Part shown: piece by piece, positions 1 through 23,549 of the stretch
How the letters are laid out: every line of letters begins with the position of its first letter
Numbering within the stretch: position 1 is the stretch's first letter
IMG/VR virus record: IMGVR_UViG_3300044640_000771
Length of the DNA stretch: 23,549 nucleotides
Strand: one strand, 5' to 3'
DNA from: a virus
Taxonomy: Duplodnaviria > Heunggongvirae > Uroviricota > Caudoviricetes
Made by a program: the position numbers and the translations under genes
The notes under the pieces: generated by a model
Told to the model about the DNA's origin: nothing
Databases searched by the model: none
What the model saw: only the letters and a program-made list of their open reading frames with translations

Positions 1-230
1 CTGTAGTTATCTAAGAGCATAGCAGCAGCGCGAAGTTTACCAGCTTCAGTAGCCTTTTCATTCTTCATAATCTTTGCTGCAGTAAGAATACTTTCCGCTA
101 CATGTGGCTTAATCTTACGTAGAAGCATTAGTAATTCACGTTCTTTCAGATCACGATTAGTGAGTTTGTCTCTCTTCTTATCGATTCTACCTTCACGGTT
201 GATATTTGGGTCACCAGCTACAAACGGCAT
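1..230 (-). CDS. Probable terminase small subunit (truncated by window edge)
   Basis: Hand translation MPFVAGDPNINREGRIDKKRDKLTNRDLKERELLMLLRKIKPHVAESILTAAKIMKNEKATEAGKLRAAAMLLDNY... The N-terminus resembles the basic G-x-P-x-GR motif of many TerS proteins. AGGA precedes the ATG. It lies downstream of the tRNA cluster. Confidence 0.45.
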   Translation of the reverse strand, partial: MPFVAGDPNINREGRIDKKRDKLTNRDLKERELLMLLRKIKPHVAESILTAAKIMKNEKATEAGKLRAAAMLLDNY

Positions 231-231
231 A

Positions 232-531
232 TCATTTCCTTATATAATTAACTTTTGCACCTTTAAGGGTATTCCACCCAATGAAAGGAGAAGGTCTAAG
301 CATTTCTTCAAGTACGAGAGCTTGAGATTCTGTTAGATTGGATACTAGTACGTCCTTTACTAAATTGTCCCAGCCGTAGTAGCTAATCATTTTAGTAAAA
401 GTTGTTATTCTCTTGTTTCTAGCGTGCTCATTCAACCTGCGTCTGAAATCTGTAGTGATTCCTATGTACCCCTCTGAGAAGATGCATCTGTGCCAGGGTG
501 ATCTGATCCAGTACAATGAGTAATTGCGCAT
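232..531 (-). CDS. Small GIY-YIG family endonuclease
   Basis: YSLYWI...GYIGIT...RRLNEH...E...N pattern of the GIY-YIG catalytic domain. 99 aa, no obvious DNA-binding extension. Confidence 0.7.
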   Translation of the reverse strand: MRNYSLYWIRSPWHRCIFSEGYIGITTDFRRRLNEHARNKRITTFTKMISYYGWDNLVKDVLVSNLTESQALVLEEMLRPSPFIGWNTLKGAKVNYIRK

Positions 532-549
532 ATCAGCATCGACTGATAT

Positions 550-744
550 TTAACCTAAATCATCATCGTAATATCGCACTGGTTCTGTCTTGGAGCCAGG
601 ATGCAAGATTTGATGAATCTCGTATTCTTCTTCTTCGTCAATCGTAGACTTAGGAAGGATATAAGCACAATCTTCACAATTGATATTATCTTTGTGAAAA
701 GAGGTCAGGCGATAGTACGCACCGCATGTTGCACAAGTTGACAT
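550..744 (-). CDS. Small Zn-ribbon protein
   Basis: CATC...CEDC (two CxxC motifs) followed by an acidic tail. Confidence 0.6.
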   Translation of the reverse strand: MSTCATCGAYYRLTSFHKDNINCEDCAYILPKSTIDEEEEYEIHQILHPGSKTEPVRYYDDDLG

Positions 745-770
745 TGATTTTAATTCCTAACTAGAAATAG

Positions 771-802
771 AAATAGCCGGATAACCCGAGGGTTTCCAGC
801 CT
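771..802 (-). terminator. Hairpin after the last tRNA (possible terminator or processing site)
   Basis: GGCTGGA-AACC-CTCG-GGTT-A-TCCGGCT followed by ATTTCTATTTC. The U-tract is weak. Confidence 0.3.
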
Positions 803-805
803 TGT

Positions 806-881
806 TGGTATCTCGTGAAGGATTCAAACCTCCGACCTCTTGATTCGTAGTCAAGTATTCTTTTCACTGAATTAACGAGAT
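806..881 (-). tRNA. tRNA-Arg(ACG)
   Basis: ATCTCGT/ACGAGAT acceptor, CTTGA-CT ACG AA-TCAAG anticodon arm, encoded CCA. Confidence 0.92.
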
Positions 882-890
882 ATTGTTTGA

Positions 891-973
891 TGGTGCCCCA
901 GGGGAGACTCGAACTCCCAAAAACCTCGCTTCTAAGGCGAGTAGCTGTGCCGATTTACATAAGTCACCGGGGC
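891..973 (-). tRNA. tRNA-Leu(TAG), atypical: short variable region, enlarged D region
   Basis: GCCCCGG/CTGGGGC, CTCGC-CT TAG AA-GCGAG, GGGAG-TTCGAGT-CTCCC, A73-CCA. Variable region is only GTTTTT. Confidence 0.85.
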
Positions 974-982
974 GAAAATAAA

Positions 983-1059
983 TTTCTCAATTGACGGAGT
1001 ACCTTACCGTTAAACGTCTTTTGGCTACCGGATATTTGCCAGGGTATGAAATTGAGAAA
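983..1059 (-). ncRNA. Candidate structured ncRNA between tRNA-Ala and tRNA-Leu
   Basis: Perfect 10-bp inverted repeat TTTCTCAATT/AATTGAGAAA enclosing small internal hairpins. Confidence 0.4.
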
Positions 1060-1062
1060 ACT

Positions 1063-1139
1063 TGGTGGATACACATGGGAATCGAACCCATAACCTTTTC
1101 CTTGCAAGGGAATTGCTCTCCCAATTGAGCTAGTGACCC
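1063..1139 (-). tRNA. tRNA-Ala(TGC)
   Basis: CT TGC AA loop and G3:U70-type pair. One extra nucleotide is bulged in the 3' acceptor strand (GTG-T-ATCC). A73-CCA. Confidence 0.85.
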
Positions 1140-1189
1140 GTATTAGTTGCAGACTTTCACTGCTCCCTCTGCTTCCGCGAGGGTATATT

Positions 1190-1278
1190 TGGTGGGTTTT
1201 GAAGGAATCGAACCATTTAGCATCCACCCTGCAAAACAATGCCCAGCGGGTTACAGCCGCCGACAGGGAACAAAACCC
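1190..1278 (-). tRNA. Non-canonical tRNA-Tyr(GTA)-like gene lacking a D arm
   Basis: 8-bp acceptor GGGTTTTG/CAAAACCC, 9-nt connector, GGCGG-CT GTA AC-CCGCT, long variable arm, TTCGATT T loop, A73-CCA. Confidence 0.75.
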
Positions 1279-1338
1279 AATATTTGGACAGGCTTCTCAC
1301 CTGATCGAGAGTTCAAACCTTATTCACTCTTAACGTCT

Positions 1339-1418
1339 TGGCGATGAATATGGGGATCGAACCCATCTGTTATCCGGCGTGACAAGCCGGTGACCACAAC
1401 CAAGCGGTCCCATTCACC
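1339..1418 (-). tRNA. tRNA-Asp(GTC)
   Basis: GGTGAAT/ATTCATC, CCGGC-TT GTC AC-GCCGG, G73-CCA. Confidence 0.92.
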
Positions 1419-1422
1419 ATTG

Positions 1423-1512
1423 TTAGTTTAACTTGATCCCGTAGAGAGCAAACATTAACTGTTCTCTAACGATCTTGTTTTTATAAGTATTTCCGTATCT
1501 CAGTAATCCCAT
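1423..1512 (-). CDS. Small hypothetical protein (29 aa)
   Basis: MGLLRYGNTYKNKIVREQLMFALYGIKLN, preceded by AAAGGAG. Below the ORF-track cutoff. Confidence 0.55.
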   Translation of the reverse strand: MGLLRYGNTYKNKIVREQLMFALYGIKLN

Positions 1513-1523
1513 GACTACTCCTT

Positions 1524-1892
1524 TCAGATACTCACAAAGTAGTTACCTTGTGCATCTGTTTGCAACTTCAAACCAAGTAGAAGTTTATCAACTTGTTCGA
1601 ACTTTGTCAATACCTTGTTTGGACCGAATTTAGCCTTAAGCCAAGCGTTGATCTTAGGGATCAAATATTCTCTGATGTAAACTAGCATATCTGTATATTG
1701 ACCTCCACGAGTATCAAAGGCATCATCAAGAGTAGCTACTGAAACCCAAGTTGAACCTTGCTTTTCTACAATCATGACAAACTGGATACCAGCTACGTCT
1801 CTGCACTTGATTCCCCAGGTTACACCGTCGATTGTAGCCTGAAAATCTGCAGCTGTCATTACGATTGAATCACCTGCTGTTTGTACTGTCAT
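1524..1892 (-). CDS. Hypothetical protein
   Basis: 122 aa ORF with AAGGAG SD that fills the gap between tRNA genes. Confidence 0.75.
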   Translation of the reverse strand: MTVQTAGDSIVMTAADFQATIDGVTWGIKCRDVAGIQFVMIVEKQGSTWVSVATLDDAFDTRGGQYTDMLVYIREYLIPKINAWLKAKFGPNKVLTKFEQVDKLLLGLKLQTDAQGNYFVSI

Positions 1893-1907
1893 GTTGTACT
1901 CCTTATT

Positions 1908-1982
1908 TGGCGTTCCCCCAAGGATTCGAACCCTGACCGCATGGGTTTGGAGCCCAGCATCATGCCGTTAGAACAGAGAAAC
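1908..1982 (-). tRNA. tRNA-Trp(CCA)
   Basis: GTTTCTC/GGGGAAC, TGGG-CT CCA AA-CCCA, G73-CCA. Confidence 0.9.
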
Positions 1983-1990
1983 ATTGTTTG

Positions 1991-2080
1991 TGGCGGGTAA
2001 TGTAGGATTCGAACCTACGGAACCATTGCTGATTCTAAAGGTTAGCAACCTTCTGCAATCGGCCTCTCTGCCAATTACCC
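1991..2080 (-). tRNA. tRNA-Ser(GCT)
   Basis: GGGTAAT/ATTACCC, GAAGG-TT GCT AA-CCTTT, long variable arm, G73-CCA. Confidence 0.93.
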
Positions 2081-2086
2081 TTATAG

Positions 2087-2173
2087 TTTTCCGTGTTCTA
2101 CCACTAAACTACCTACCAGCCCTTTTTATCGTTATGGTCATTGGGGAGGGGTCGAACCTCCGTCCGGAATTTG
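2087..2173 (-). pseudogene. Two tRNA halves in 3'-then-5' order
   Basis: 3' half GCAAA-TTCCG-GAC-GGAGG-TTCGACC-CCTCC-CCAATGA-CCA (2135-2174), then 5' half TGGTAGG-TA-GTTT-AGTGGTA-GAAC-A-CGGAA (2088-2118). Confidence 0.6.
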
Positions 2174-2212
2174 CTTCGGTGCTTTACCTAACTAGTAAAG
2201 CGAATTTGGTGC
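2173..2212. repeat. 40-bp spacer repeat, copy 1
   Basis: 38/40 identical to 3875-3914. Contains hairpin GCTTTAC-TAGTTAG-GTAAAGC on the minus strand. Confidence 0.9.
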
Positions 2213-2282
2213 CAAGAGAAGGATTTGAACCTCCCACGCAAACCTTTTCAGGGTTCCGCTCTACCAGATGAGCTATCTCGGC
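2207..2282 (-). tRNA. tRNA-Phe(GAA)
   Basis: GCCGAGA/TCTTGGC, GAACC-CT GAA AA-GGTTT, A73-CCA. Confidence 0.93.
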
Positions 2283-2294
2283 ATTTATTTGTTC

Positions 2295-2373
2295 TGGCAC
2301 CGTACCGAGGAATCGAACCCCGCTATCCATTGATTAACAGTCAAGCCCATGCGCCTTGCTCGGGTTCTACGGT
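2295..2373 (-). tRNA. tRNA-Asn(GTT)
   Basis: ACCGTA/TACGGT acceptor, TTGA-CT GTT AA-TCAA, G73-CCA. Confidence 0.88.
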
Positions 2374-2375
2374 AT

Positions 2376-2466
2376 TGCTTATGACAGGCAGTGCAACCAA
2401 TTACACTATCCAAAGATAAGATTTTTAGTTTTATCTAGGGCACGGTTTCGAACCGAATCTTCCTGT
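2376..2466 (-). pseudogene. Degenerate tRNA fragments (3'-half remnant followed by 5'-half remnant)
   Basis: CGG-TTCGAAA-CCG T-arm remnant at about 2435-2466. D-arm remnant TA-GTGT-AATTGGTT-GCAC-TGCCTGTCATAAGC at about 2377-2418. Confidence 0.45.
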
Positions 2467-2474
2467 ACTGAATT

Positions 2475-2550
2475 TGGTACCCTCATCGGGGATCGAACCC
2501 GACTCTTATCCTTGAAAGGGATGTGTTCTAACCTACTAAACTACAAGGGC
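2475..2550 (-). tRNA. tRNA-Glu(TTC)
   Basis: GCCCTTG/TGAGGGT, ATCC-CT TTC AA-GGAT, CCA. Confidence 0.92.
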
Positions 2551-2554
2551 ATTA

Positions 2555-2815
2555 TCACATCATCAGCGCGTAGTACCCAAGGGCACCTAAACCTACGCCG
2601 ACAAAAGAAACTACAATATCTTGTAAAGAGAATGTCCCTTTACCTAGGAGTCCATCATACACTACATCTTTCAATAGTGCAAGTGTAACTCCTGCAATTA
2701 CTCCATACAGGAGAACCTGTGAAAACGCAGCTACACCGAATGTAGCTACAAGACAACCAATTAGATGAAGGTTCTTATCCTTACCAATCCAACTGTCATT
2801 TGTTACGAATTTCAT
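2555..2815 (-). CDS. YfiM/DUF2279-like membrane protein
   Basis: NDSWIGKDKNLH...LLKDVVYD...GTFSLQDI..S..G matches my recollection of the YfiM pattern (NDSW-G-DK--H...KE--D...S--D). Hydrophobic helices. GGAG SD before MKFV. Confidence 0.65.
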   Translation of the reverse strand: MKFVTNDSWIGKDKNLHLIGCLVATFGVAAFSQVLLYGVIAGVTLALLKDVVYDGLLGKGTFSLQDIVVSFVGVGLGALGYYALMM

Positions 2816-2838
2816 ACAGTCTCCTGTTTGTAAAGCCA

Positions 2839-2957
2839 TTTTACAGGCTTTGTTTTGTAAAACGGTATCAAGGAGTGCATGCCCTGAATTTACTAACTTC
2901 CTCCTTGGAAGTTAACCTTAATCGCAGTCCGTAAGTCACTAATGTATGAGATTACGG
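2839..2957 (-). ncRNA. Candidate four-hairpin ncRNA in the tRNA array
   Basis: Stems at 2929-2957, 2894-2914, 2868-2887 and 2839-2862 fill the spacer between tRNA-fMet and the YfiM-like gene. Confidence 0.35.
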
Positions 2958-2962
2958 TCATT

Positions 2963-3040
2963 TGGTTGCGAAGGTCGGATTCGAACCGACGATGGGTGGG
3001 ATATGAGCCCACTGCTTTAGTCCACCTAAGCTACCTCGCA
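2963..3040 (-). tRNA. tRNA-Met(CAT), initiator-like
   Basis: CT CAT AT loop, three consecutive G-C pairs (GTGGG/CCCAC) in the anticodon stem, TGCGAGG/CTTCGCA acceptor with a weak U1-A72 pair. Confidence 0.88.
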
Positions 3041-3041
3041 T

Positions 3042-3164
3042 TTATTCTTGCGTAATCCTGCGCAAATCTCTTTCGAACTTACGCATGTTACGTCTTCCTC
3101 TGTATTTTGAGCTGAAATCGGCTTCATTCCAGATATCATTGTATTTTAGTCTGTTATCTTTCAT
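3042..3164 (-). CDS. Small basic hypothetical protein (40 aa)
   Basis: MKDNRLKYNDIWNEADFSSKYRGRRNMRKFERDLRRITQE with GGAG SD. Overlaps the stop of the upstream gene (ATGA). Confidence 0.6.
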   Translation of the reverse strand: MKDNRLKYNDIWNEADFSSKYRGRRNMRKFERDLRRITQE

Positions 3165-3439
3165 TTGTCAACTCCATCAAATAATCTTTCTCTGCTTAGA
3201 CAATAAGAGATTTCTTCTAAGTCGAAATCTTTCAAGTCTAATATTACACAGCAATGACAGGTTTTACCCATTACTGAAAACTTATCTTTGTAATGAATAA
3301 ACTGGTAAAGATCATAGTCAGTTTCAATTTGAAACGTTCTATTTCTTATAACCGGATTATGTTGTGTCAATTCTACTGTTGTTTGTTGAAACTTGTCAAC
3401 TAGAAGTTTTCGATCTTTTGCAACAACTAGAAAAATCAT
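3161..3439 (-). CDS. Hypothetical protein
   Basis: 92 aa ORF with AAGGAG SD. Confidence 0.7.
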   Translation of the reverse strand: MIFLVVAKDRKLLVDKFQQTTVELTQHNPVIRNRTFQIETDYDLYQFIHYKDKFSVMGKTCHCCVILDLKDFDLEEISYCLSRERLFDGVDK

Positions 3440-3454
3440 AAAACTCCTTTATTC

Positions 3455-3530
3455 TGGCAGGGGATGCTGGATTCGAACCAGCGACACCTGGAGTCAAAGT
3501 CCAGTGCTCTACCAACTGAGCTAACCCCCA
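3455..3530 (-). tRNA. tRNA-Gln(TTG)
   Basis: CTGGA-CT TTG AC-TCCAG, unpaired 1:72 position typical of Gln, G73-CCA. Confidence 0.93.
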
Positions 3531-3542
3531 ACTGAAACTGAA

Positions 3543-3616
3543 TTATACAACCTTTACTAAGTCAGCGCAAGGCTCTCCTGCAATTCGAAACGACTCAACT
3601 GTTTCTTGTTGTATAA
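3543..3616 (-). ncRNA. Candidate structured ncRNA between tRNA-Cys and tRNA-Gln
   Basis: 9-bp closing stem TTATACAAC/GTTGTATAA with internal hairpins GAAAC/GTTTC and GCAGG/CCTTGC. Confidence 0.4.
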
Positions 3617-3618
3617 AT

Positions 3619-3693
3619 TGGATACTTTAGTCGGAATCGAACCGACCTACGAGGATTTGCAATCCCCTGCCTAAACCACTCGACCATAAAGTA
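3619..3693 (-). tRNA. tRNA-Cys(GCA)
   Basis: TACTTTA/TAAAGTA, GGGGA-TT GCA AA-TCCTC, U73-CCA. Confidence 0.92.
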
Positions 3694-3696
3694 GTT

Positions 3697-3773
3697 TGGT
3701 AGTCAGTGAGGGATTTGAACCCACTATCTTCGCCTTATCAAGACGTTGCTTATGCCACTTAAGCTTCCCGACC
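3697..3773 (-). tRNA. tRNA-Ile(GAT)
   Basis: CGTC-TT GAT AA-GGCG. Several wobble or mismatch pairs in the acceptor and T stems. A73-CCA. Confidence 0.8.
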
Positions 3774-3785
3774 GTTGTAAATATT

Positions 3786-3876
3786 TGGTGCTCCCTGTAG
3801 GATTCGAACCTACGATGTTACTTTCGTTATTCCTGCTTACAAGGCAGGTGCAATCGACCAACTATGCGAAAAGAGC
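3786..3876 (-). tRNA. tRNA-Thr(TGT) with an 18-nt variable arm
   Basis: GCTCTTT/AGGGAGC, CCTGC-CT TGT AA-GCAGG, variable region AATAACGAAAGTAACATC, GTAGG-TTCGAAT-CCTAC. Confidence 0.85.
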
Positions 3877-3914
3877 TTCGGTGCTTTACCTAACTAGCAA
3901 AGCGAAATTGGTGC
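3875..3914. repeat. 40-bp spacer repeat, copy 2
   Basis: 38/40 identical to 2173-2212. Confidence 0.9.
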
Positions 3915-3984
3915 ATACTGTAGGATTCGAACCTACCTCGATCATCTTGTAAGGATGGTGACTAAACCAATCATCCAAGTATGC
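3909..3984 (-). tRNA. tRNA-Val(TAC)
   Basis: GCATACT/AGTATGC, CATC-CT TAC AA-GATG, A73-CCA. Confidence 0.92.
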
Positions 3985-3990
3985 TTTATC

Positions 3991-4021
3991 TGGAGCGTTT
4001 CGCAGAAACCTCTGCGAAAGC
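3991..4021 (-). ncRNA. CCA-terminated minihelix with a Gly-type end
   Basis: GC-TTTCGCAGA-GGTT-TCTGCGAAA-C-GC-T-CCA. Confidence 0.4.
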
Positions 4022-4030
4022 TTTGCTTTC

Positions 4031-4106
4031 TGGAGCGTCCAGAGGGAATCGAACCCTACCCTGCACGGCTTGGAAGGCCGGCGACACAACCCGTGTGCTT
4101 GGAAGC
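4031..4106 (-). tRNA. tRNA-Gly(TCC)
   Basis: CGGC-CT TCC AA-GCCG, U73-CCA, one acceptor mismatch. Confidence 0.88.
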
Positions 4107-4116
4107 ATTTGTATCT

Positions 4117-4144
4117 ATTATAGCATGACATTCTTAGTTGTCAA
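4117..4144 (-). promoter_or_regulatory. Sigma70-type promoter inside the tRNA array
   Basis: TTGACA-16 nt-TATAAT with TG extension, about 10 nt upstream of tRNA-Gly. Confidence 0.8.
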
Positions 4145-4149
4145 GCTAT

Positions 4150-4240
4150 ACATGCCTCGCCTGGAATTAAATTCCGTCCGCTGCTTGCTCGGCAATACCT
4201 GCAGTTGTTGCGACCCTTCTTCCTCTGCAGGATTGTATTC
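4150..4240 (-). ncRNA. Structured spacer, candidate ncRNA
   Basis: CCTGCAG/CTGCAGG stem (4198-4231), GGAAT/ATTCC hairpin (4163-4175), TTGCC/GGCGA closing pairs. Confidence 0.3.
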
Positions 4241-4241
4241 T

Positions 4242-4315
4242 TGGGGTGACTTCGGGGATCGAACCCTGTTCTTCTGATTCACAGTCAGGGGCATTACCAT
4301 ATATGCTAAAGTCAC
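4242..4315 (-). tRNA. tRNA-His(GTG), lacks encoded G-1
   Basis: GTGACTT/AAGTCAC, CTGA-CT GTG AA-TCAG, C73-CCA. Position -1 is A. The T arm is one nucleotide short. Confidence 0.8.
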
Positions 4316-4644
4316 TACTGAACATCGATGTACTCGATAGGCATCCCGTTCTCTTCAGCAAATCTAATCTCTGCTTGAACTCCACCTGACTCTTTCCATC
4401 CATCAAACTTAAGAACAACTAGTTTATCACATCGTTGCATAAACATCAAGCAGAAGTTTTTCCAGAAATCCCAATCTGTTCCTAGATTAGCGTGATGCTG
4501 ACACGCATAATGATGTACTAATCCTGTAATTGTATAACTACCAGGATTGTCTAGCATGTACCTTCCACAAATATTAGCAATTCTATCCATTAGTTCTGCT
4601 TTATTCTTTACATTTGAATAAGGTGCTGCTACATATACAATCAT
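4315..4644 (-). CDS. DUF1937 family protein (nucleoside deoxyribosyltransferase-like fold)
   Basis: YVAAPYS...W..FC...CDKLVVLKFDGWKESGGVQAEIRFAEENGMPI pattern. Confidence 0.7.
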   Translation of the reverse strand: MIVYVAAPYSNVKNKAELMDRIANICGRYMLDNPGSYTITGLVHHYACQHHANLGTDWDFWKNFCLMFMQRCDKLVVLKFDGWKESGGVQAEIRFAEENGMPIEYIDVQ

Positions 4645-4658
4645 TATACCTCCTGTTT

Positions 4659-4745
4659 TGGCGGGGCGTAAAGGAATCGAACCATCAGCTATCTCTAACT
4701 GCCCTAGCTTTCAAGGCTAGTTTGTACCCATTGTAGGTACACCCC
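4659..4745 (-). tRNA. tRNA-Ser(TGA) with 8/4-type acceptor/T geometry and an abnormal D region
   Basis: GGGGTGTA/TACGCCCC, CTAGC-CT TGA AA-GCTAG, CAGTTA-GAGA-TAGCTG variable arm, ATGG-TTCGATT-CCTT, G73-CCA. Confidence 0.8.
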
Positions 4746-4759
4746 ATCTTTTTATTCTT

Positions 4760-4849
4760 TGGTCTACCGGGTAGGATTCGAACCTACGAGATCCCTTCGG
4801 GCTTCTTGCTTCCAAAGCAAGCACTCTGACCAAGCTGAGTTACCGATAG
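4760..4849 (-). tRNA. tRNA-Pro(TGG) with a 17-nt variable arm
   Basis: CTATCGG/CCGGTAG, CTTGC-TT TGG AA-GCAAG, variable region AAGCCCGAAGGGATCTC, A73-CCA. Confidence 0.88.
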
Positions 4850-4860
4850 ATTGTTTTTAT

Positions 4861-5064
4861 AATTGTTAGCGCTGGTTACGTATCCAGCGTTGTCCAGGTG
4901 TCGAAAGGAGAGAGAAACTACACGAGTACAACCGATTTAATTGCATGCAGTCAGTTCATTATGCCTAACTACGACCAGCCTGTCAAGAGATTGATTCAAC
5001 CCTCTTTGGTTGTCTCTCAAGACCTTTAGTACTGAAGTTACGATGCAACTTTTACATACAACAG
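4861..5064 (-). ncRNA. About 200-nt structured leader or ncRNA at the head of the tRNA operon
   Basis: No convincing ORF between the promoter (5070-5097) and tRNA-Pro. Several stems and a pyrimidine-rich loop. Confidence 0.4.
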
Positions 5065-5069
5065 ATGTT

Positions 5070-5097
5070 ATTGTAGCACACAATCTCAGGAAGTCAA
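5070..5097 (-). promoter_or_regulatory. Sigma70-type promoter of the tRNA operon
   Basis: TTGACT-16 nt-TACAAT with TG extension. The -35 overlaps the HNH gene end. Confidence 0.7.
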
Positions 5098-5577
5098 TAC
5101 GTATGCACTAATAAATTTTATGTATCGAAGTTGCATCTTCAAGAGCTTCCTCTTCGCAACGGTGATATCCTGGATCACTTCCTTCTTGACTCTGCTATCT
5201 TGTCTGTACTCTAGAACATAGCTGAATGCATCCGTTGGATGTGGAATCAGTCGTAGAGCACCTGACAAGTTCTTCATTGCTTCCATTATCTTAGCTTTAG
5301 TCTTCTTAGGAAGCAAGCACAAGTTGTTGATCTTGTTGTTCTTTTCATCTAAATCCTTATGAAATACTACATGATCATCTGGTGGCACTTCCTTGTAGTA
5401 AGAGCACCAAACTAACTTGTCATATTTCATCTTAATCTTGGATTTATTGATGGTTACACTGACTGTATTCTCTTCGTCAGGTATCAGTTTACGTACTCTT
5501 TGGTTATTCTTTAGGATAAACACTTCTCCAGTAGTAGGAGAGCACTCTAAAGAGTTGAGCACATCTAAAGCTTGCAT
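5086..5577 (-). CDS. HNH endonuclease (homing-type)
   Basis: LVWCSYY..VPPDDHVVFHKDLDEKNNKINNL (HNH_3-like). Start placed at MQALDV after AAAGGAG. Confidence 0.7.
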   Translation of the reverse strand: MQALDVLNSLECSPTTGEVFILKNNQRVRKLIPDEENTVSVTINKSKIKMKYDKLVWCSYYKEVPPDDHVVFHKDLDEKNNKINNLCLLPKKTKAKIMEAMKNLSGALRLIPHPTDAFSYVLEYRQDSRVKKEVIQDITVAKRKLLKMQLRYIKFISAYVLTS

Positions 5578-5720
5578 ATCTTCTCCTTTGAAGTCTGTAA
5601 TAACAGAGAGCACAACTAAATTCTATTTGGTGTATACCGATGATGCAACCTGCGTTAGCAAGTTACAGGATCGGAGAGCACACAAGAAATTAGATAAGCT
5701 TTCAAGTGCAGCTTATACGA

Positions 5721-12782: not shown

Positions 12783-12811
12783 ATTTTACAGAGAATTATT
12801 CAGGTTGTCAA
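12783..12811 (-). promoter_or_regulatory. Sigma70-type promoter
   Basis: TTGACA-17 nt-TAAAAT. The -35 overlaps the TGA stop of 12808-13116. Confidence 0.75.
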
Positions 12812-13116
12812 CTACTGAACTCTTCAATCATGTTGTCAACCCATGCAAAGCGATACGCTTGCTTTTCTTCTTCACGTTTCAGGTCAATACCATGCACAAT
12901 CCATAGCCAAGTAATCACGCTCAGACTACCATCGAGCCTTTGATCAATCAAATCGGTAAGTTTGTGGTCTTCAGTGCTACCGATGGCATCACAGATAGCG
13001 CAACAAACAAAGCTTGTTTCATCATCTGGCATTTCACCTTTGCCATCCCAAAGAAACTTCTTAGCTTCCTTCAGAATCTTGACAAATTCTTTCTTGTCCG
13101 CTTTAGTAATTTCCAT
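12808..13116 (-). CDS. Hypothetical protein, paralog family A
   Basis: LKEAKKFLWDG...VCCAI...RLDG...WL...YRFAWVDNMIEEFSS. Paralog of 14339-14656. Confidence 0.8.
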   Translation of the reverse strand: MEITKADKKEFVKILKEAKKFLWDGKGEMPDDETSFVCCAICDAIGSTEDHKLTDLIDQRLDGSLSVITWLWIVHGIDLKREEEKQAYRFAWVDNMIEEFSS

Positions 13117-14313: not shown

Positions 14314-14342
14314 ATTCTAAGTGATTTCTAGTGCAATGTCAA
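14314..14342 (-). promoter_or_regulatory. Sigma70-type promoter
   Basis: TTGACA-17 nt-TAGAAT followed by TCTTTCATCG. Shares 16 identical bp with the 14014 promoter. Confidence 0.8.
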
Positions 14343-14656
14343 CTACTGAATTCTTCAATCAGCTTGTCTACCCAAGCGTGACGATGTTGCTGCAGTTGCT
14401 GACTAGTCACCAGAGACATGTTAACACCTTTTTCTTGCAACCAACACTGCAAAGTGTGGCAACCATTGAGGCGTTCACTAATGATAGTACGCATTTCAAA
14501 TGCGTCTACCCATGCAGCGGGATATTTGTTAGCAACATACCTCAAAGCAACGCAGATAAATTCTTCCTTGCCGGCTTCGTTGTCAGGATCTCCATCCCAT
14601 AGAACCTTCTTTGCTTCTTTCAGAGCAAATACCTTAACTTCATGATTATATTTCAT
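14339..14656 (-). CDS. Hypothetical protein, paralog family A
   Basis: LKEAKKVLWDG...ICVAL...RLNG...WL...HRHAWVDKLIEEFSS. Confidence 0.8.
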   Translation of the reverse strand: MKYNHEVKVFALKEAKKVLWDGDPDNEAGKEEFICVALRYVANKYPAAWVDAFEMRTIISERLNGCHTLQCWLQEKGVNMSLVTSQQLQQHRHAWVDKLIEEFSS

Positions 14657-20081: not shown

Positions 20082-20336
20082 TCAAGCATTCTTATCGTTT
20101 AGATAAGCTTCGTGTGAAGTATCTACATAGATTCCGGTAGCACCCTCAACCTCACGCTCATCTACATAATAGTTTACGTCATAGTATTTCAAGCGAGGAT
20201 TTGTCTTGTCTTCAGCAATAGTCTCTAGTTTGGCTTTTTCAGCAGCTTCAGGAGTAGCGAACACACCAAGCACACAGTCATAATTTGACTCATGTTTGAT
20301 ATACTCATTCCGAATCAACAGAAATACTTTCATCAC
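20082..20336 (-). CDS. Hypothetical protein
   Basis: KVFLL...VLGVFATPEAA pattern common in phage hypotheticals. Confidence 0.7.
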   Translation of the reverse strand: MMKVFLLIRNEYIKHESNYDCVLGVFATPEAAEKAKLETIAEDKTNPRLKYYDVNYYVDEREVEGATGIYVDTSHEAYLNDKNA

Positions 20337-20917
20337 AAATCTCCTACTCGGTTTTCACGATGTGTATCAGCAATGTAGACTTCTCGCTTATCCATGTACT
20401 GCTTGATTTCATCAAAATTCAACAGACGATGTTCACCAAATAGATTGTACACGTTGTCGATACCAACGTCAAGAATCTTACCCTTGCCTTCTGTGTACAT
20501 TCCGTGGCTATGACCATGCAGATGCCAACTACCGCGATGCTGCTGGTGCCAACTAGCAATTGGAAAGTGAAACATTACAACTTTCTGACCATCGAACTGC
20601 TTCTCAAGGTAGTCATGAGTATATACACCGTTGACACCACGCGAATACTGCTTGAAGTTATCAGAGTAATCATGGTTACCCTTGATCATGTGGATTGTAC
20701 CATTTAGGCGTTCAATTACAGCCAATGTCTTCTTCGTATCCTTAGCAAAGGAGAAATCACCCAGGTGATAAACAGTATCACCTTTCTTGACTTGCTTGTT
20801 CCAGATTTCAATCAGCCATTCTGTGTGGTTGTCTGCGTCAGTAAACAAGTGACGATTTGTGAAAGTCACAATATTGCGATGAAACCAGTGCAGGTCGCTA
20901 GTAAACCAGATATTCAT
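20333..20917 (-). CDS. Calcineurin-like metallophosphoesterase
   Basis: FTSDLHWFH, YHLGDFS, KGNHD, FHFP, HLHGHSH, LDVGID. Start MNIWF after GGAGG. Confidence 0.92.
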   Translation of the reverse strand: MNIWFTSDLHWFHRNIVTFTNRHLFTDADNHTEWLIEIWNKQVKKGDTVYHLGDFSFAKDTKKTLAVIERLNGTIHMIKGNHDYSDNFKQYSRGVNGVYTHDYLEKQFDGQKVVMFHFPIASWHQQHRGSWHLHGHSHGMYTEGKGKILDVGIDNVYNLFGEHRLLNFDEIKQYMDKREVYIADTHRENRVGDL

Positions 20918-20918
20918 A

Positions 20919-21101
20919 TTATTCCTCCAAGAAACACAGATGCCGTTTTGGTACATTAAACTCATGTCCATCATCGGCTTTTACTTTATAAAGCCCACCC
21001 TTTAATTGTCGGATTACTTCTACTGCTTGCCCAGTATAGGAATAGTAATTCTTACGCTGGGGTACGTGATCCAGTTTAGGTAAGAACAATGCAAATTGCA
21101 T
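20919..21101 (-). CDS. Small hypothetical protein (SH3-like)
   Basis: 60 aa that fills the gap between the ligase and the phosphoesterase. Confidence 0.6.
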   Translation of the reverse strand: MQFALFLPKLDHVPQRKNYYSYTGQAVEVIRQLKGGLYKVKADDGHEFNVPKRHLCFLEE

Positions 21102-21102
21102 G

Positions 21103-21978
21103 TCATCCTTTCAGTTGTTCAAGAAACTTGCGTCGATCTTGCTCGTCAGTGTCAATCCAACCTTGAGCGTTGAATTCCTTAACGACTGCAGAGACTGCAT
21201 CTTCCCACATTTCAGGCAATCCGTCAACTACCCCTTTGTTGTACATCTTTAGGGTGTTGCTTTGGGATAGTCGCATCAGCTTCTTCTTACCTACATAGTA
21301 CGGAGTCTTCAACTTGCAGCATTGCATGTTGCTATCATACAACATGAAACCTTCGCCGCGATCAGTCTTCGCAAGTTTAATTGCAGCAGAAAGAGTCATA
21401 ACGTCAACGAAATGACCGACAGGAACATATTCTCCTGGTTCATAAAACTTCGAATTGAAAGGCCCTTGACGATAACCAAGGTAATGAGAACCGAATTTTT
21501 CCTGCACGATGTGAGGGTCTTGCGGCACACATATTTCGAATAGCCAAGTACGCCCGTCATCCCAATCATAATAATCTGGAAGGTCTCTCAGTAGGAGTTC
21601 CTTTGCCCACTCAGCGTAATCAGACTTTGTGCTACCAGTAGTACCTACAATAACTTTACCATTGCGGACAGCCAGCGTAGCCATGTAACCGTTGATCTTC
21701 TTGAATACCTTTACAGAAGTATCCAGCGGCTTATCCTTCCAGTATCCATCTTCAAGATAATTGAATGACTTCGTAGGGGCAGCAAGTACCAGTTCACCAG
21801 TGTGAATATCGTAGGTATGACCACGGCATTCCATTACTTCAGGATGCTTCTTCCACAGGTAATCGTACATAACCCGACGATGATACTTGAAGGTATCCAG
21901 ACCAAGTTCTTCGTTGCGAGAAACGGTAGCAAGCTTCTGCTTGACTAGGTTCAACTGTTGTTCGTATGTAAGCAGCAT
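21103..21978 (-). CDS. RNA ligase, T4 Rnl1-like
   Basis: ECRG, TKSFNY, KKINGYM (motif I), TWLFEI, EGFM, KLKTPYY. Start MLLTYE after AAAGGA. Confidence 0.88.
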   Translation of the reverse strand: MLLTYEQQLNLVKQKLATVSRNEELGLDTFKYHRRVMYDYLWKKHPEVMECRGHTYDIHTGELVLAAPTKSFNYLEDGYWKDKPLDTSVKVFKKINGYMATLAVRNGKVIVGTTGSTKSDYAEWAKELLLRDLPDYYDWDDGRTWLFEICVPQDPHIVQEKFGSHYLGYRQGPFNSKFYEPGEYVPVGHFVDVMTLSAAIKLAKTDRGEGFMLYDSNMQCCKLKTPYYVGKKKLMRLSQSNTLKMYNKGVVDGLPEMWEDAVSAVVKEFNAQGWIDTDEQDRRKFLEQLKG

Positions 21979-21979
21979 G

Positions 21980-22168
21980 TTAGTCCTTTGTTGGTCGCTT
22001 TTCCAGTGACAGTTCTTCATTTGATCCGGCGGATTTTGTTCTACCTGAATGGGCGTACCAAAGCCCTCCACTGAAGATGGGTCGATCTTCACACCACCAC
22101 CACATACCATCCTCGTCTTTAGCAATGTAGTTTGCCCATTCAGGTGCAAAATCCCAGGAAGGTTTCAT
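21980..22168 (-). CDS. Conserved phage hypothetical protein
   Basis: WDFAPEWANYIAKDEDG.WWW....P...SLEKRP. Confidence 0.75.
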   Translation of the reverse strand: MKPSWDFAPEWANYIAKDEDGMWWWCEDRPIFSGGLWYAHSGRTKSAGSNEELSLEKRPTKD

Positions 22169-23032: not shown

Positions 23033-23549
23033 TTACTTATTAAACTTATCCCTGATATCAACAGGAATTACCAGCTTCCAGTCAAAGAACCTCTTCTTGA
23101 ATTTCTCAGCCCTTCGCATACTTCTGTCAAACTGCTTCTTGTCTTCACAATGTACAAGAGTGTACTCCTTCCGAGTCAAGTCGTCAACAAAGGCATCGGT
23201 GTAGCTCAGAGTCTTGCCATCGAACCAGCACTGACAGAAACCAAAGTCATACAGAGGGATTCTATCTGCAAGTGTCATACCCTTGGCTAACATGATGATC
23301 TGTACATCGTGATCAGTAGATACGGTAAGATGATACTCTGGAAGATCATATTCGTCAACGTTCTTGTTTGCAAGATGGACACTCCAAATACGAGTAACTT
23401 CCTGCTGAGACATGTAAGAAGCACTCTGCATTTCGTCAGCATCAATCTTAACCATAAAAGCTTCAATTACCTTGTCTTCAGTATGAGGAATGAAGATATC
23501 AATATCCTTGAATTGTACACCAACAATTGAGTCTCGGATAAACCCGCCT
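23033..23549 (-). CDS. CCA-adding/poly(A) polymerase-family nucleotidyltransferase (start outside window)
   Basis: Extending the ORF to the window edge gives GGFIRDSIVGVQFKDIDIF, the class II NTase signature. Also YDFGFCQ and a RSMRRAEKF motif near the C-terminus. Confidence 0.8.
   Translation of the reverse strand, partial: GGFIRDSIVGVQFKDIDIFIPHTEDKVIEAFMVKIDADEMQSASYMSQQEVTRIWSVHLANKNVDEYDLPEYHLTVSTDHDVQIIMLAKGMTLADRIPLYDFGFCQCWFDGKTLSYTDAFVDDLTRKEYTLVHCEDKKQFDRSMRRAEKFKKRFFDWKLVIPVDIRDKFNK

Follow-up and report, generated by a model that had tools for sequence, protein, structure and literature searches.

A near-complete phage tRNA array with atypical members and a separate set of predicted RNA repair enzymes

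It is known that phages can carry arrays of transfer RNA (tRNA) genes, RNA repair enzymes, 8/4 tRNA-Ser and single nuclease-resistant tRNAs. Mukai et al. described 8/4 tRNA-Ser and tRNA-His as well as allo-tRNAs in phage tRNA clusters in 2017, including allo-tRNAs with non-Ser anticodons and irregular tRNAs that are charged yet unused in translation (PMC5389517). Defence nucleases read defined parts of a tRNA: Septu and retron Eco7 cut tRNA-Tyr in its variable loop (PMC13096335), P2 OLD cuts the anticodon stem of tRNA-Thr(UGU), with phage tRNA-Thr being resistant (PMC12445682), and Cas12a3 cuts CCA tails (PMC12851939). Published phage tRNA-Tyr and tRNA-Thr evade such nucleases by changes in the variable loop or the anticodon stem (PMC13096335, PMC12445682), and resistance is described for T5 tRNA-Lys against PARIS and for T5 tRNA-Tyr against retron Eco7 and Septu (PMC10264068, PMC11555353, PMC13096335). 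Here, we analyzed a stretch of 23,549 nucleotides (nt) from a virus of the Caudoviricetes (IMG/VR record IMGVR_UViG_3300044640_000771; the whole stretch is hereafter called the window), which encodes a tRNA array, a putative set of RNA repair enzymes and a nucleotidyltransferase. About half of the tRNAs have atypical shapes, and comparison with related loci suggests that these shapes are kept by selection and exchanged at fixed slots.

Like the published 8/4 form, tRNA-Ser(UGA) of the window has an 8-bp acceptor stem, a T stem read as 4 bp, a long variable (V) arm and, across lineages, G73 or U73, and it is located one gene away from tRNA-His, as in the phage clusters (PMC5389517). Unlike that form, its T stem contains an internal U.U or C.U in four of six lineages and its D arm is small (3–4 bp with a loop of 3–5 nt); the tRNA-His of the window differs from the A73/U73 8/4 form by C73 and a defective T arm. 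V-armed tRNA-Thr and tRNA-Pro, short-V tRNA-Leu and D-armless tRNA-Tyr were not found in the searched text of PMC5389517. As in the nuclease-resistant phage tRNAs, Thr-UGU and Tyr-GUA are present, here in unusual forms. In contrast to the former, the changes are architectural, with arms gained, lost or re-proportioned, and concern about half of a near-complete set. A literature search, in which absence is no proof of novelty, revealed no variable hairpins on class I phage tRNAs, no class I-shaped phage tRNA-Leu, no D-armless phage tRNA-Tyr and no slot-wise cassette exchange of reshaped phage tRNAs. A preliminary description of the window had called the change in shape novel; this was partly anticipated (PMC5389517, PMC13096335, PMC12445682).

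Gene content and decoding set of the array

On the minus strand, positions 806–4849 carry 20 tRNA genes that together cover 19 amino acids, as counted in the preliminary description. ARAGORN with default settings returned 15 tRNAs and Rfam (model RF00005, gathering score 29 bits) returned 14, giving a union of 16, all on the minus strand; relaxed ARAGORN added Leu-UAG, Tyr-GUA (miscalled Pro-GGG), Asn-GUU and Gly-UCC. The RF00005 threshold is passed by 15 of the 20 genes and failed by Leu, Asn and Gly (21.1, 21.0 and 19.6 bits) as well as by Ser-UGA and Tyr, which gave no RF00005 match at E ≤ 1 and were recognized by the tRNA-Sec model only (33.7 and 21.9 bits). CCA is encoded at the predicted 3′ end of all 20 genes, which applies to Ala only if one bulged U is accepted. 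The genes are:

806–881, minus: tRNA-Arg(ACG); T loop UUUGAAU (U56); 61.3 bits
891–973, minus: tRNA-Leu(UAG) of class I shape; 6-nt V region, 25 nt between acceptor and anticodon stems, A73; 21.1 bits
1063–1139, minus: tRNA-Ala(UGC); a single U bulges from the 3′ acceptor strand, a reading that keeps G3:U70, A73 and CCA
1190–1278, minus: tRNA-Tyr(GUA) without D arm; 8-bp acceptor stem, 9-nt connector, 28-nt V region, 4-bp T stem, A73
1339–1418, minus: tRNA-Asp(GUC) with 7-nt variable loop; ARAGORN; RF00005 34.6 bits
1908–1982, minus: tRNA-Trp(CCA), rich in G.U pairs; ARAGORN and Rfam, 40 bits
1991–2080, minus: tRNA-Ser(GCU), ordinary class II; ARAGORN and Rfam
2207–2282, minus: tRNA-Phe(GAA), canonical; ARAGORN and Rfam
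2295–2373, minus: tRNA-Asn(GUU), atypical; acceptor stem of 6 bp plus G.G, 3-bp D stem with structured 13-nt loop, G73; 21.0 bits
2475–2550, minus: tRNA-Glu(UUC); ARAGORN and Rfam
2963–3040, minus: tRNA-Met(CAU); ARAGORN and Rfam
3455–3530, minus: tRNA-Gln(UUG), canonical; ARAGORN and Rfam, 66 bits
3619–3693, minus: tRNA-Cys(GCA); ARAGORN and Rfam
3697–3773, minus: tRNA-Ile(GAU); G.A at the seventh acceptor pair, T-stem mismatch; 40.2 bits; 94–96% identical in L006
3786–3876, minus: tRNA-Thr(UGU); canonical 7/5 body with 18-nt GAAA-capped variable hairpin; 57.2 bits
3909–3984, minus: tRNA-Val(UAC), canonical; ARAGORN and Rfam; 100% identical in L006
4031–4106, minus: tRNA-Gly(UCC), atypical; U3.C70, C27.U43, 4-bp D stem with 5-nt loop, 4-bp T stem, U73; 19.6 bits
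4242–4315, minus: tRNA-His(GUG); G1-C72, C73, A at −1, 6-nt T loop or 3-bp T stem; 49.8 bits
4659–4745, minus: tRNA-Ser(UGA) of 8/4 type; 8-bp acceptor stem, 4-bp T stem with U.U, 6-bp V arm, small D arm, G73
4760–4849, minus: tRNA-Pro(UGG); 7/5 cloverleaf with 17-nt variable hairpin (CCC-GAA-GGG), C1-G72, A73; RF00005 57.7 bits

The set is economical. Each four-codon box that is represented has a U34 tRNA (Leu UAG, Val UAC, Ser UGA, Pro UGG, Thr UGU, Ala UGC and Gly UCC), Arg is decoded by ACG, and the two-codon boxes have one G34 or U34 tRNA apiece. Ahead of the array, the minus strand carries sigma-70-like promoter sequences; a further site, within the array at 4144–4117, has a perfect consensus. 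At least nine genes lie outside the bacterial norm. These include the non-standard Tyr, Ser-UGA, Thr, Pro and Leu genes named in the preliminary description, to which we add the D arms of Gly and Asn and the 7-nt V region of Asp; of the genes to which it ascribed smaller lesions, Ala has the bulged U, His the A at −1 and a defective T arm, and Ile the G.A and a T-stem mismatch. In tRNA-Tyr, the V region forms a 4–5-bp stem with a 15-nt loop, and the enlarged D region of tRNA-Leu allows two alternative folds, with no informative variation among sequences. Four tRNAs of the window share one T arm; Ser-UGA and Tyr-GUA share the T arm AUGG-UUCGAUU-CCUU. Read against textbook identity rules, the sequences keep G1-C72, C2-G71 and G35U36 in Thr, C1-G72 and A73 in Pro, G3:U70 and A73 in Ala, the long arm and G73 in Ser, A73 in Leu, G73 in Asn and U73 in Gly.

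Several other readings were rejected. ARAGORN reads 1190–1278 as Pro(GGG); the GUA reading gives a clean 5-bp stem, U33 and A37, and the slot is Tyr in relatives. The ARAGORN registers for Leu and Ala swallow the CCA, and the adopted registers yield a 7-bp acceptor stem, A73 and CCA. A G-1 reading of His would leave one surplus C at the 3′ end.

Some further elements were observed between the genes. A conserved element of about 34 nt with a 7-bp hairpin directly follows the CCA of Phe (2173–2206) and Val (3877–3908) on the minus strand and recurs after tRNAs in L006 (5865–5898 and 8097–8125), L010 (1573–1601) and L016 (7436–7464), with the consensus AATTCGCTTT-R-CTAGTTAGGTAAAGCACCGAAGC, and possibly serves as a signal for processing or termination. 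At 3991–4021 (minus strand), a hairpin of 9–11 bp ends in ACGCTCCA, a copy of the 3′ end of the neighboring Gly gene, and is terminator-like on the plus strand. The gap between Ala and Leu (974–1062, minus strand) could form a 9-bp long-range stem of TTCTCAATT with AATTGAGAA, enclosing about 70 nt, and possibly is a small structured RNA other than a tRNA. The 236-nt leader (4850–5085, minus strand), which extends from promoter-like sites to tRNA-Pro, is 95% conserved in L006, where the following Pro gene is replaced.

Conservation of the atypical shapes and probable exchange at fixed slots

Related loci and contigs compared with the window carry L-numbers (L006, L010, etc.) and were reached via a 122-amino-acid open reading frame (ORF) inside the array and via the terminase. 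Searches via the ligase, the DUF1937 gene or DUF7227 gave no informative relatives (L002 and L004 are without tRNAs, and L005 was left aside), and a nucleotide search of a phage collection with the window returned generic tRNA similarity alone. Judging by protein similarity, the source of the window is an uncultured tailed phage that is distant kin of the Pseudomonas Pakpunavirus/Otagovirus group and of Limnohabitans phage DC31: its ligase is 47.5% identical to that of DC31, its DUF7227 protein is 41–45% identical to Pseudomonas phage proteins, and its terminase is 74–85% identical to that of relatives whose fetched loci reach this gene. A 42-kb IMG/VR contig is 99.95% identical across window positions 1–4455.

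The 8/4 tRNA-Ser(UGA) sequences from six lineages aligned readily. Here, 92.6% of all cells are paired and both sides changed in 16 of 27 pairs; none of 500 shuffles reached the observed pairing, and slid controls were 39–49% paired. The 8-bp acceptor stem is paired in 100% of cells, with six of eight pairs changed on both sides and the eighth pair being G-C in four lineages and A-U in two. The 6-bp V arm is also 100% paired with covariation. In the T stem, pairs 1, 3 and 4 hold, and pair 2 is G.U in two lineages and unpaired in four. Position 73 is G in four lineages and U in the other two.

For Gly, Asn, Asp, Leu, Thr and Tyr, covariation was read by eye or with our own script from few sequences. 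The short-V form of Leu is present in the window, L006, L009 and L015, with two independent compensatory changes in the anticodon stem; a Leu probe matched just the near-identical contig among viral contigs and nothing among metagenome contigs. The window, L014 and L017 have the same Gly form, with acceptor, D and anticodon stems that differ in a compensatory manner, and its U3.C70 and C27.U43 mismatches are conserved, U3.C70 in all three lineages. The Asn design is shared by the window, L006, L008, L016 and L017, with the D stem covarying as CCC/GGG, UCC/GGG and CGC/GCG, and the Asp form, whose stems covary as well, was found in five lineages with four different acceptor stems. The Thr hairpin is kept with differing sequence in the window and L006 (AC-GAAA-GU core), L009 (CC-GUAAAA-GG) and L017 (AGG-GAAA-CCU); L014, L015 and L022 carry an ordinary Thr without V hairpin. 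A metagenome pattern scan recovered the 89-nt D-armless Tyr design from one contig of 34 kb, with a single change, and from another of 161 kb; the loci with homologues are L024 and, on the 161-kb contig, L023/L026. The homologue on the 161-kb contig differs by two-sided changes at three acceptor pairs and two V-stem pairs and has A-U in place of the T-stem U.U; the connector and the V-loop motif GCAGGGUGG are invariant. As the candidate pseudoknot CCCUG/CAGGG is invariant across the Tyr homologues, covariation neither supports nor contradicts it. Ala is identical in L006, L007 and L014 and shows one deletion in L009.

Because these forms recur in relatives with compensatory changes, simple decay, which the preliminary description had named as a refuting case, is rejected for Ser, Thr, Leu, Gly, Asn, Asp and Tyr; Pro is a singleton. 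The alignments thus indicate that the atypical shapes are kept by selection.

Comparable shapes were identified on further tRNAs of relatives. GAAA-capped variable hairpins are found on Met (L014) and on Lys, Gln and Asn (L021), and several unrelated short-armed Leu-UAG genes occur in L010, L016, L017 and L022. In L009, L010, L014, L015, L016, L017, L023 and L027, T loops AGCGUUA, AGCAUUA, AUCGUUA or AUCGAUA replace UUCGAAU in many tRNAs, as if positions 54 and 58 had been exchanged, with G55; this type of T loop is absent from the 20 window tRNAs. Regarding other T-loop features, U56 of Arg-ACG is present in all sampled lineages with that form, Arg-ACG of L021 differs, and Cys in relatives has A56. 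The cultured Pseudomonas putida phage NoPa carries an 8/4 Ser-UGA whose D arm is that of the window, short-armed Leu-CAA and Leu-UAG, and odd T loops. The 161-kb contig Ga0307928_10000003 (L023/L026), which is unrelated to the window, has at least 20 tRNA genes within 12 kb, including short-armed Leu-UAA and Leu-UAG and odd T loops besides the D-armless Tyr. The presence of this Tyr design in an unrelated contig suggests that single tRNA cassettes travel between phage lineages.

The order of slots by anticodon is largely kept among relatives, and identity per slot is bimodal. Compared with L006, Val and Ala are 100% and Thr and Asn 98% identical, in contrast to 65% for Pro and 64% for Gly; compared with L010, Ser-GCU and Trp are 100% identical, in contrast to 64% for Ala, 66% for Leu and 57% for Tyr. 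Unrelated tRNAs reach 55–70% on this slot-wise measure. The Tyr slot is illustrative, as its flanks are 100% identical in L010 and L006 and the gene between them differs; at least five unrelated versions occupy it across the family. Identities of 100% next to about 60% in adjacent slots point to cassette exchange, and the array is thus best described as evolving by the swapping of single tRNA genes at fixed slots for unrelated versions. The gaps 2081–2206 and 2374–2474 (minus strand) contain tRNA fragments that resemble remnants left by cassette replacement: in one gap, a T arm with a 3′ acceptor strand ending in CCA is followed by a separate 5′ half (acceptor and D arm), and in the other there is a lone T-arm-like piece. 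A candidate driver of this exchange lies directly upstream of the array:

5086–5613, minus: HNH endonuclease; HNH_3 match

An HNH_3 gene is found at the same place in L006, L009, L014–L016 and L022. HNH genes accompany most sampled arrays, and some arrays contain HNH or PD-(D/E)XK genes; this setting resembles the tRNA region of T-even phages, which is rich in homing endonucleases (PMC13096335). Past the high end of the window, in the same or a near-identical genome (L018, 8813–10011), an HNH-AP2 endonuclease gene appears to interrupt the dCMP deaminase gene that lies upstream of the nucleotidyltransferase, which would be a second homing-type insertion in this genome.

The array is embedded in the local gene order DUF7227, ClpP-like, PhoH, HNH, tRNA array, terminase and portal, which is wholly or largely common to L006, L009, L014–L017 and L022. 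A DUF1937 gene (nucleoside deoxyribosyltransferase-like) lies within the array at 4315–4644, as it does within the array of L021, and ORFs with weak or faint matches to Macro domains were noted inside the arrays of L017 (5849–6313) and L021 (3337–3774). Two paralogous small ORFs (12808–13116 and 14339–14656, minus strand) belong to the same PHROG, phrog_8421, in which no function is assigned.

RNA repair enzymes and the nucleotidyltransferase

Four enzymes had been proposed to accompany the array, and the following genes correspond to them:

20333–20974, minus: metallophosphoesterase, candidate 3′-end healing enzyme; Metallophos_2, 32.6 bits against a cut-off of 27; phrog_547, 9e-55
21103–22149, minus: Rnl1-like ATP-dependent RNA ligase; phrog_562 (the PHROG of T4 RnlA), 2e-40; likely true start at 21978, giving 291 amino acids
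22622–23023, minus: stand-alone P-loop polynucleotide-kinase (PNK)-like kinase of 133 amino acids; AAA_33, 1.4e-10 (passes); phrog_505 (PNK), 3e-14
23033–23548, minus: class II nucleotidyltransferase, head and neck only; C-terminal 171 of 200 amino acids, cut by the window end

The first three proposals were borne out. The ligase fails curated thresholds, as it gave no Pfam match (PF09511) and reached 4e-7 and 29.4 bits with TIGR02308 (cut-off 242), and a sequence search of the PDB found nothing, which made a fold search necessary. Its AlphaFold2 model (mean confidence, pLDDT, 93) has T4 Rnl1 structures as the three best PDB folds (2c5u, 9do4 and 5tt6; E 5e-13 to 5e-12; query-normalized TM-score 0.64–0.65), followed by Rnl3 and fungal Trl1. 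K94-x-N96-G97, E209-G210 and K222-x-K224 are invariant in 29 sequences, and in our own reading would represent nucleotidyltransferase motifs I (KxxG), IV (EG) and V (KxK). The model contains helices at 226–289, which may correspond to the C-terminal helical domain that confers tRNA specificity on the 374-amino-acid T4 Rnl1. The best PDB sequence match of the kinase is the T4 Pnk kinase domain, a weak one (E 0.03).

Among 1059 clusters of ligase homologues, some are fused as AAA_33-Metallophos-RNA_lig_T4_1 or as kinase-ligase, and the fused ones pass PF09511. The window kinase aligns to the N-terminal domain of the fused protein P0241 (E 4e-4), and the window esterase aligns weakly with the fused middle domain (E 0.054). 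As kinase, esterase and ligase occur fused in other phages, a heal-and-seal pathway, as claimed before, is supported, and by these comparisons a genuine heal-and-seal set is well supported. The three genes are syntenic in DC31, which has seven tRNAs by Rfam, and in NoPa. Their equal presence in both phages indicates that the trio predates the particular forms of this array.

With an Rnl1-fold ligase and a PNK-like kinase in a genome with a tRNA cluster, the window resembles T4, in which Pnkp and Rnl1 repair PrrC-cut tRNA-Lys. It differs in that T4 Pnkp has a fused 3′-phosphatase of the DxDxT HAD type, the candidate healer here being a separate metallophosphoesterase; furthermore, the ligase has about 291 instead of 374 amino acids, there is no tRNA-Lys gene, and no PrrC context is known. 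The same three activities would be expected as in Clostridium thermocellum Pnkp and the fungal and plant Trl1-type enzymes (PMC2190708, PMC10946426), with which the ligase homologues P0241 and P0266 share the fused kinase-Metallophos-ligase arrangement. Unlike in these enzymes, the window trio consists of three separate genes with small ORFs between them, and the esterase belongs to Metallophos_2.

The fourth proposal, a CCA-type nucleotidyltransferase, held in part. The protein shares the head-neck fold and the GGxxRD...DxD signature of class II CCA-adding enzymes: it has the motifs GGFIRD...DID and CED...R, with G30-G31-x-x-R34-D35 and D44-I-D46 invariant, and the top 45 PDB folds of its model (pLDDT 86) are CCA-, CC- or A-adding enzymes and poly(A) polymerase, the match spanning head and neck, about half of each target (target-normalized TM-score 0.27–0.35). 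A PDB sequence search gave nothing meaningful, and the PolyA_pol profile scored 21.8 bits, below its gathering score of 23. PF26128 Gad2 (anti-Gabija) is a precomputed label on P0125 and all seven homologues, which a direct Pfam run did not return. Gad2 is an anti-Gabija protein of about 400 amino acids whose mechanism is not known and in which a nucleotidyltransferase domain is predicted (Yirmiya et al., bioRxiv 10.1101/2023.05.01.538930). Unlike Gad2 and the CCA-adding enzymes (about 400 amino acids), the window protein has 200 amino acids and no body or tail. Because of this half size and the precomputed Gad2 assignment, CCA repair is only one reading; the enzyme may rebuild 3′ ends or may act in anti-defence in the manner of Gad2.

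Interpretation and rival explanations

The explanation that we prefer, for and against which we see the scales about level, is a working, near-minimal decoder array whose odd shapes are kept by selection, swapped slot by slot and likely serve nuclease evasion, with the repair enzymes acting in parallel. With such an array, the phage could translate while drawing little on the tRNAs of its host. Since most atypical members keep their cognate identity elements, they are taken as chargeable, and the fact that the new shapes are regular, recur and covary speaks for selection acting on shape. The likeliest selective driver would be tRNA-directed nucleases that read tRNA shape or local sequence, under whose attack replacement tRNAs of another shape would stay intact. 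We consider evasion the best single driver because published defence nucleases read the Tyr variable loop, the Thr(UGU) anticodon stem and CCA tails. In parallel, kinase, metallophosphoesterase and Rnl1-like ligase would heal and reseal cut tRNA, and the 200-amino-acid nucleotidyltransferase would either restore 3′ ends or counteract defence like Gad2. As the trio is older than the array forms and physically separate, array and enzymes are most likely parallel counter-measures in one genome and not one co-evolved device. The single integrated anti-tRNase system of the preliminary description is a plausible hypothesis, and its interpretation as a whole is partly supported.

Several points weigh against the preferred explanation. 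tRNA-Lys, the classic target of PrrC and PARIS, was found neither in the window array by ARAGORN (default and relaxed) and Rfam nor in the 42-kb sister contig. Some lesions hit identity elements, which applies to U3.C70 of Gly and to His without G-1, and a long variable arm on Thr or Pro could lead to mis-serylation. For the long-armed Pro, no orthologue was found among the sampled relatives, where the Pro slot of L006 holds a canonical Pro of 77 nt, and since an exact-pattern scan of viral contigs was empty as well, this form stays a singleton. Recent transfer, and not long purifying selection, may account for some of the high identities, and odd shapes and cassette exchange could persist without nuclease pressure. 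About 15.5 kb separate the array from the enzymes, which belong to another gene block, the trio is conserved in relatives whatever their tRNAs look like, and the nucleotidyltransferase is without body and tail, the domains with which class II enzymes bind the tRNA elbow.

Part of this evidence would also fit tolerated drift and recombination, in which brief, high-dose use of the tRNAs loosens constraint, class II bodies are re-used and mosaic spread proceeds without nuclease pressure. Gln-UUG of L021, built on a tRNA-Leu-like D arm with a V hairpin, points to such re-use of a chassis; four window tRNAs have a T arm in common, mosaicism is general in phages, and conserved mismatches may hitch-hike after recent transfer, with Ala and Leu being 97–100% identical across otherwise diverged phages. 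We nevertheless regard drift as unlikely, because the new modules are regular, recur on six or more class I identities (Thr, Pro, Met, Lys, Gln and Asn) and are always hairpins of the NNN-GAAA-NNN type, and because the survival of the 8/4 and D-armless designs through many compensatory changes indicates purifying selection on shape. Quite unlikely in our view is that Tyr, His, Gly and perhaps Pro are non-decoding tRNA-like RNAs (processing signals, primers, or decoys for nucleases or synthetases) or weakly functional relics. The missing D arm of Tyr, the invariance of its connector and V-loop motif, as expected of a binding or pseudoknot site, the missing G-1 of His and the U3.C70 of Gly in three of three lineages would fit, as would the charged yet non-translating irregular tRNAs of Mukai et al. 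(PMC5389517). However, each of these genes occupies a slot where relatives carry a tRNA with the same anticodon, their anticodon loops show the usual U33 and purine 37, they retain CCA as well as the cognate discriminators, and the set would no longer be near-complete without Tyr, His, Gly and Pro.

Alternatively, the altered shapes could be a form of self-marking, in which the phage destroys host tRNAs or lets them decay and shields its own set from its own or induced nucleases. Loss of host tRNAs can drive the acquisition of viral tRNAs, the set is near-complete and minimal, and many ORFs of the window are of unknown function. However, protein profile searches identified no candidate tRNase in the window and only about half of the tRNAs are atypical, which makes self-marking improbable. 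We give hardly any credence to recoding, by which SerRS or LeuRS would charge the long-armed Thr and Pro, or another synthetase the short-armed UAG tRNA, and thereby alter codon meaning. SerRS relies chiefly on the long arm, and allo-tRNAs are known whose anticodons are not those of Ser (PMC5389517), but Thr and Pro have A73 instead of G73 and keep their own acceptor and anticodon determinants, and as close relatives carry canonical versions in the same slot, codon meaning cannot differ.

Evasion by a decoding array, the preferred explanation, also has a more specific form, which we put forward tentatively and consider doubtful. Here, a phage lineage of about 75–90 kb and at least one unrelated 161-kb phage would maintain a polymorphic, re-architected tRNA pool, comprising V-hairpin Thr, Pro, Met, Lys, Gln and Asn, armless-V Leu, D-armless Tyr, 8/4 Ser and 54/58-swapped T loops. 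Homing endonucleases would assist its shuffling through cassette exchange at fixed slots, and the outcome would be a polymorphism of shape that serves immune evasion from tRNA-cutting defences. Within it, the D-armless Tyr would probably be held together by a pseudoknot of connector and V loop, and a mini Gad2-type enzyme with a CCA-fold would mend 3′ ends. If true, this would link Gabija and OLD-type Toprim nucleases to tRNA damage.

A quarter of this array escapes default tRNA finders, which suggests that phage tRNA repertoires in metagenomes are probably under-counted. If the interpretation as working tRNAs is true, conserved exceptions in phages of bacteria, such as Tyr without a D arm, Thr, Pro, Lys and Gln of class II shape and Leu of class I shape, would extend the range that bacterial translation is known to accept, and the reshaped tRNAs would offer ready-made scaffolds for orthogonal translation. 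If the shapes indeed block tRNA-cutting defences, the array and its relatives, which include the cultured P. putida phage NoPa and Limnohabitans phage DC31, would constitute a natural library for mapping nuclease recognition.

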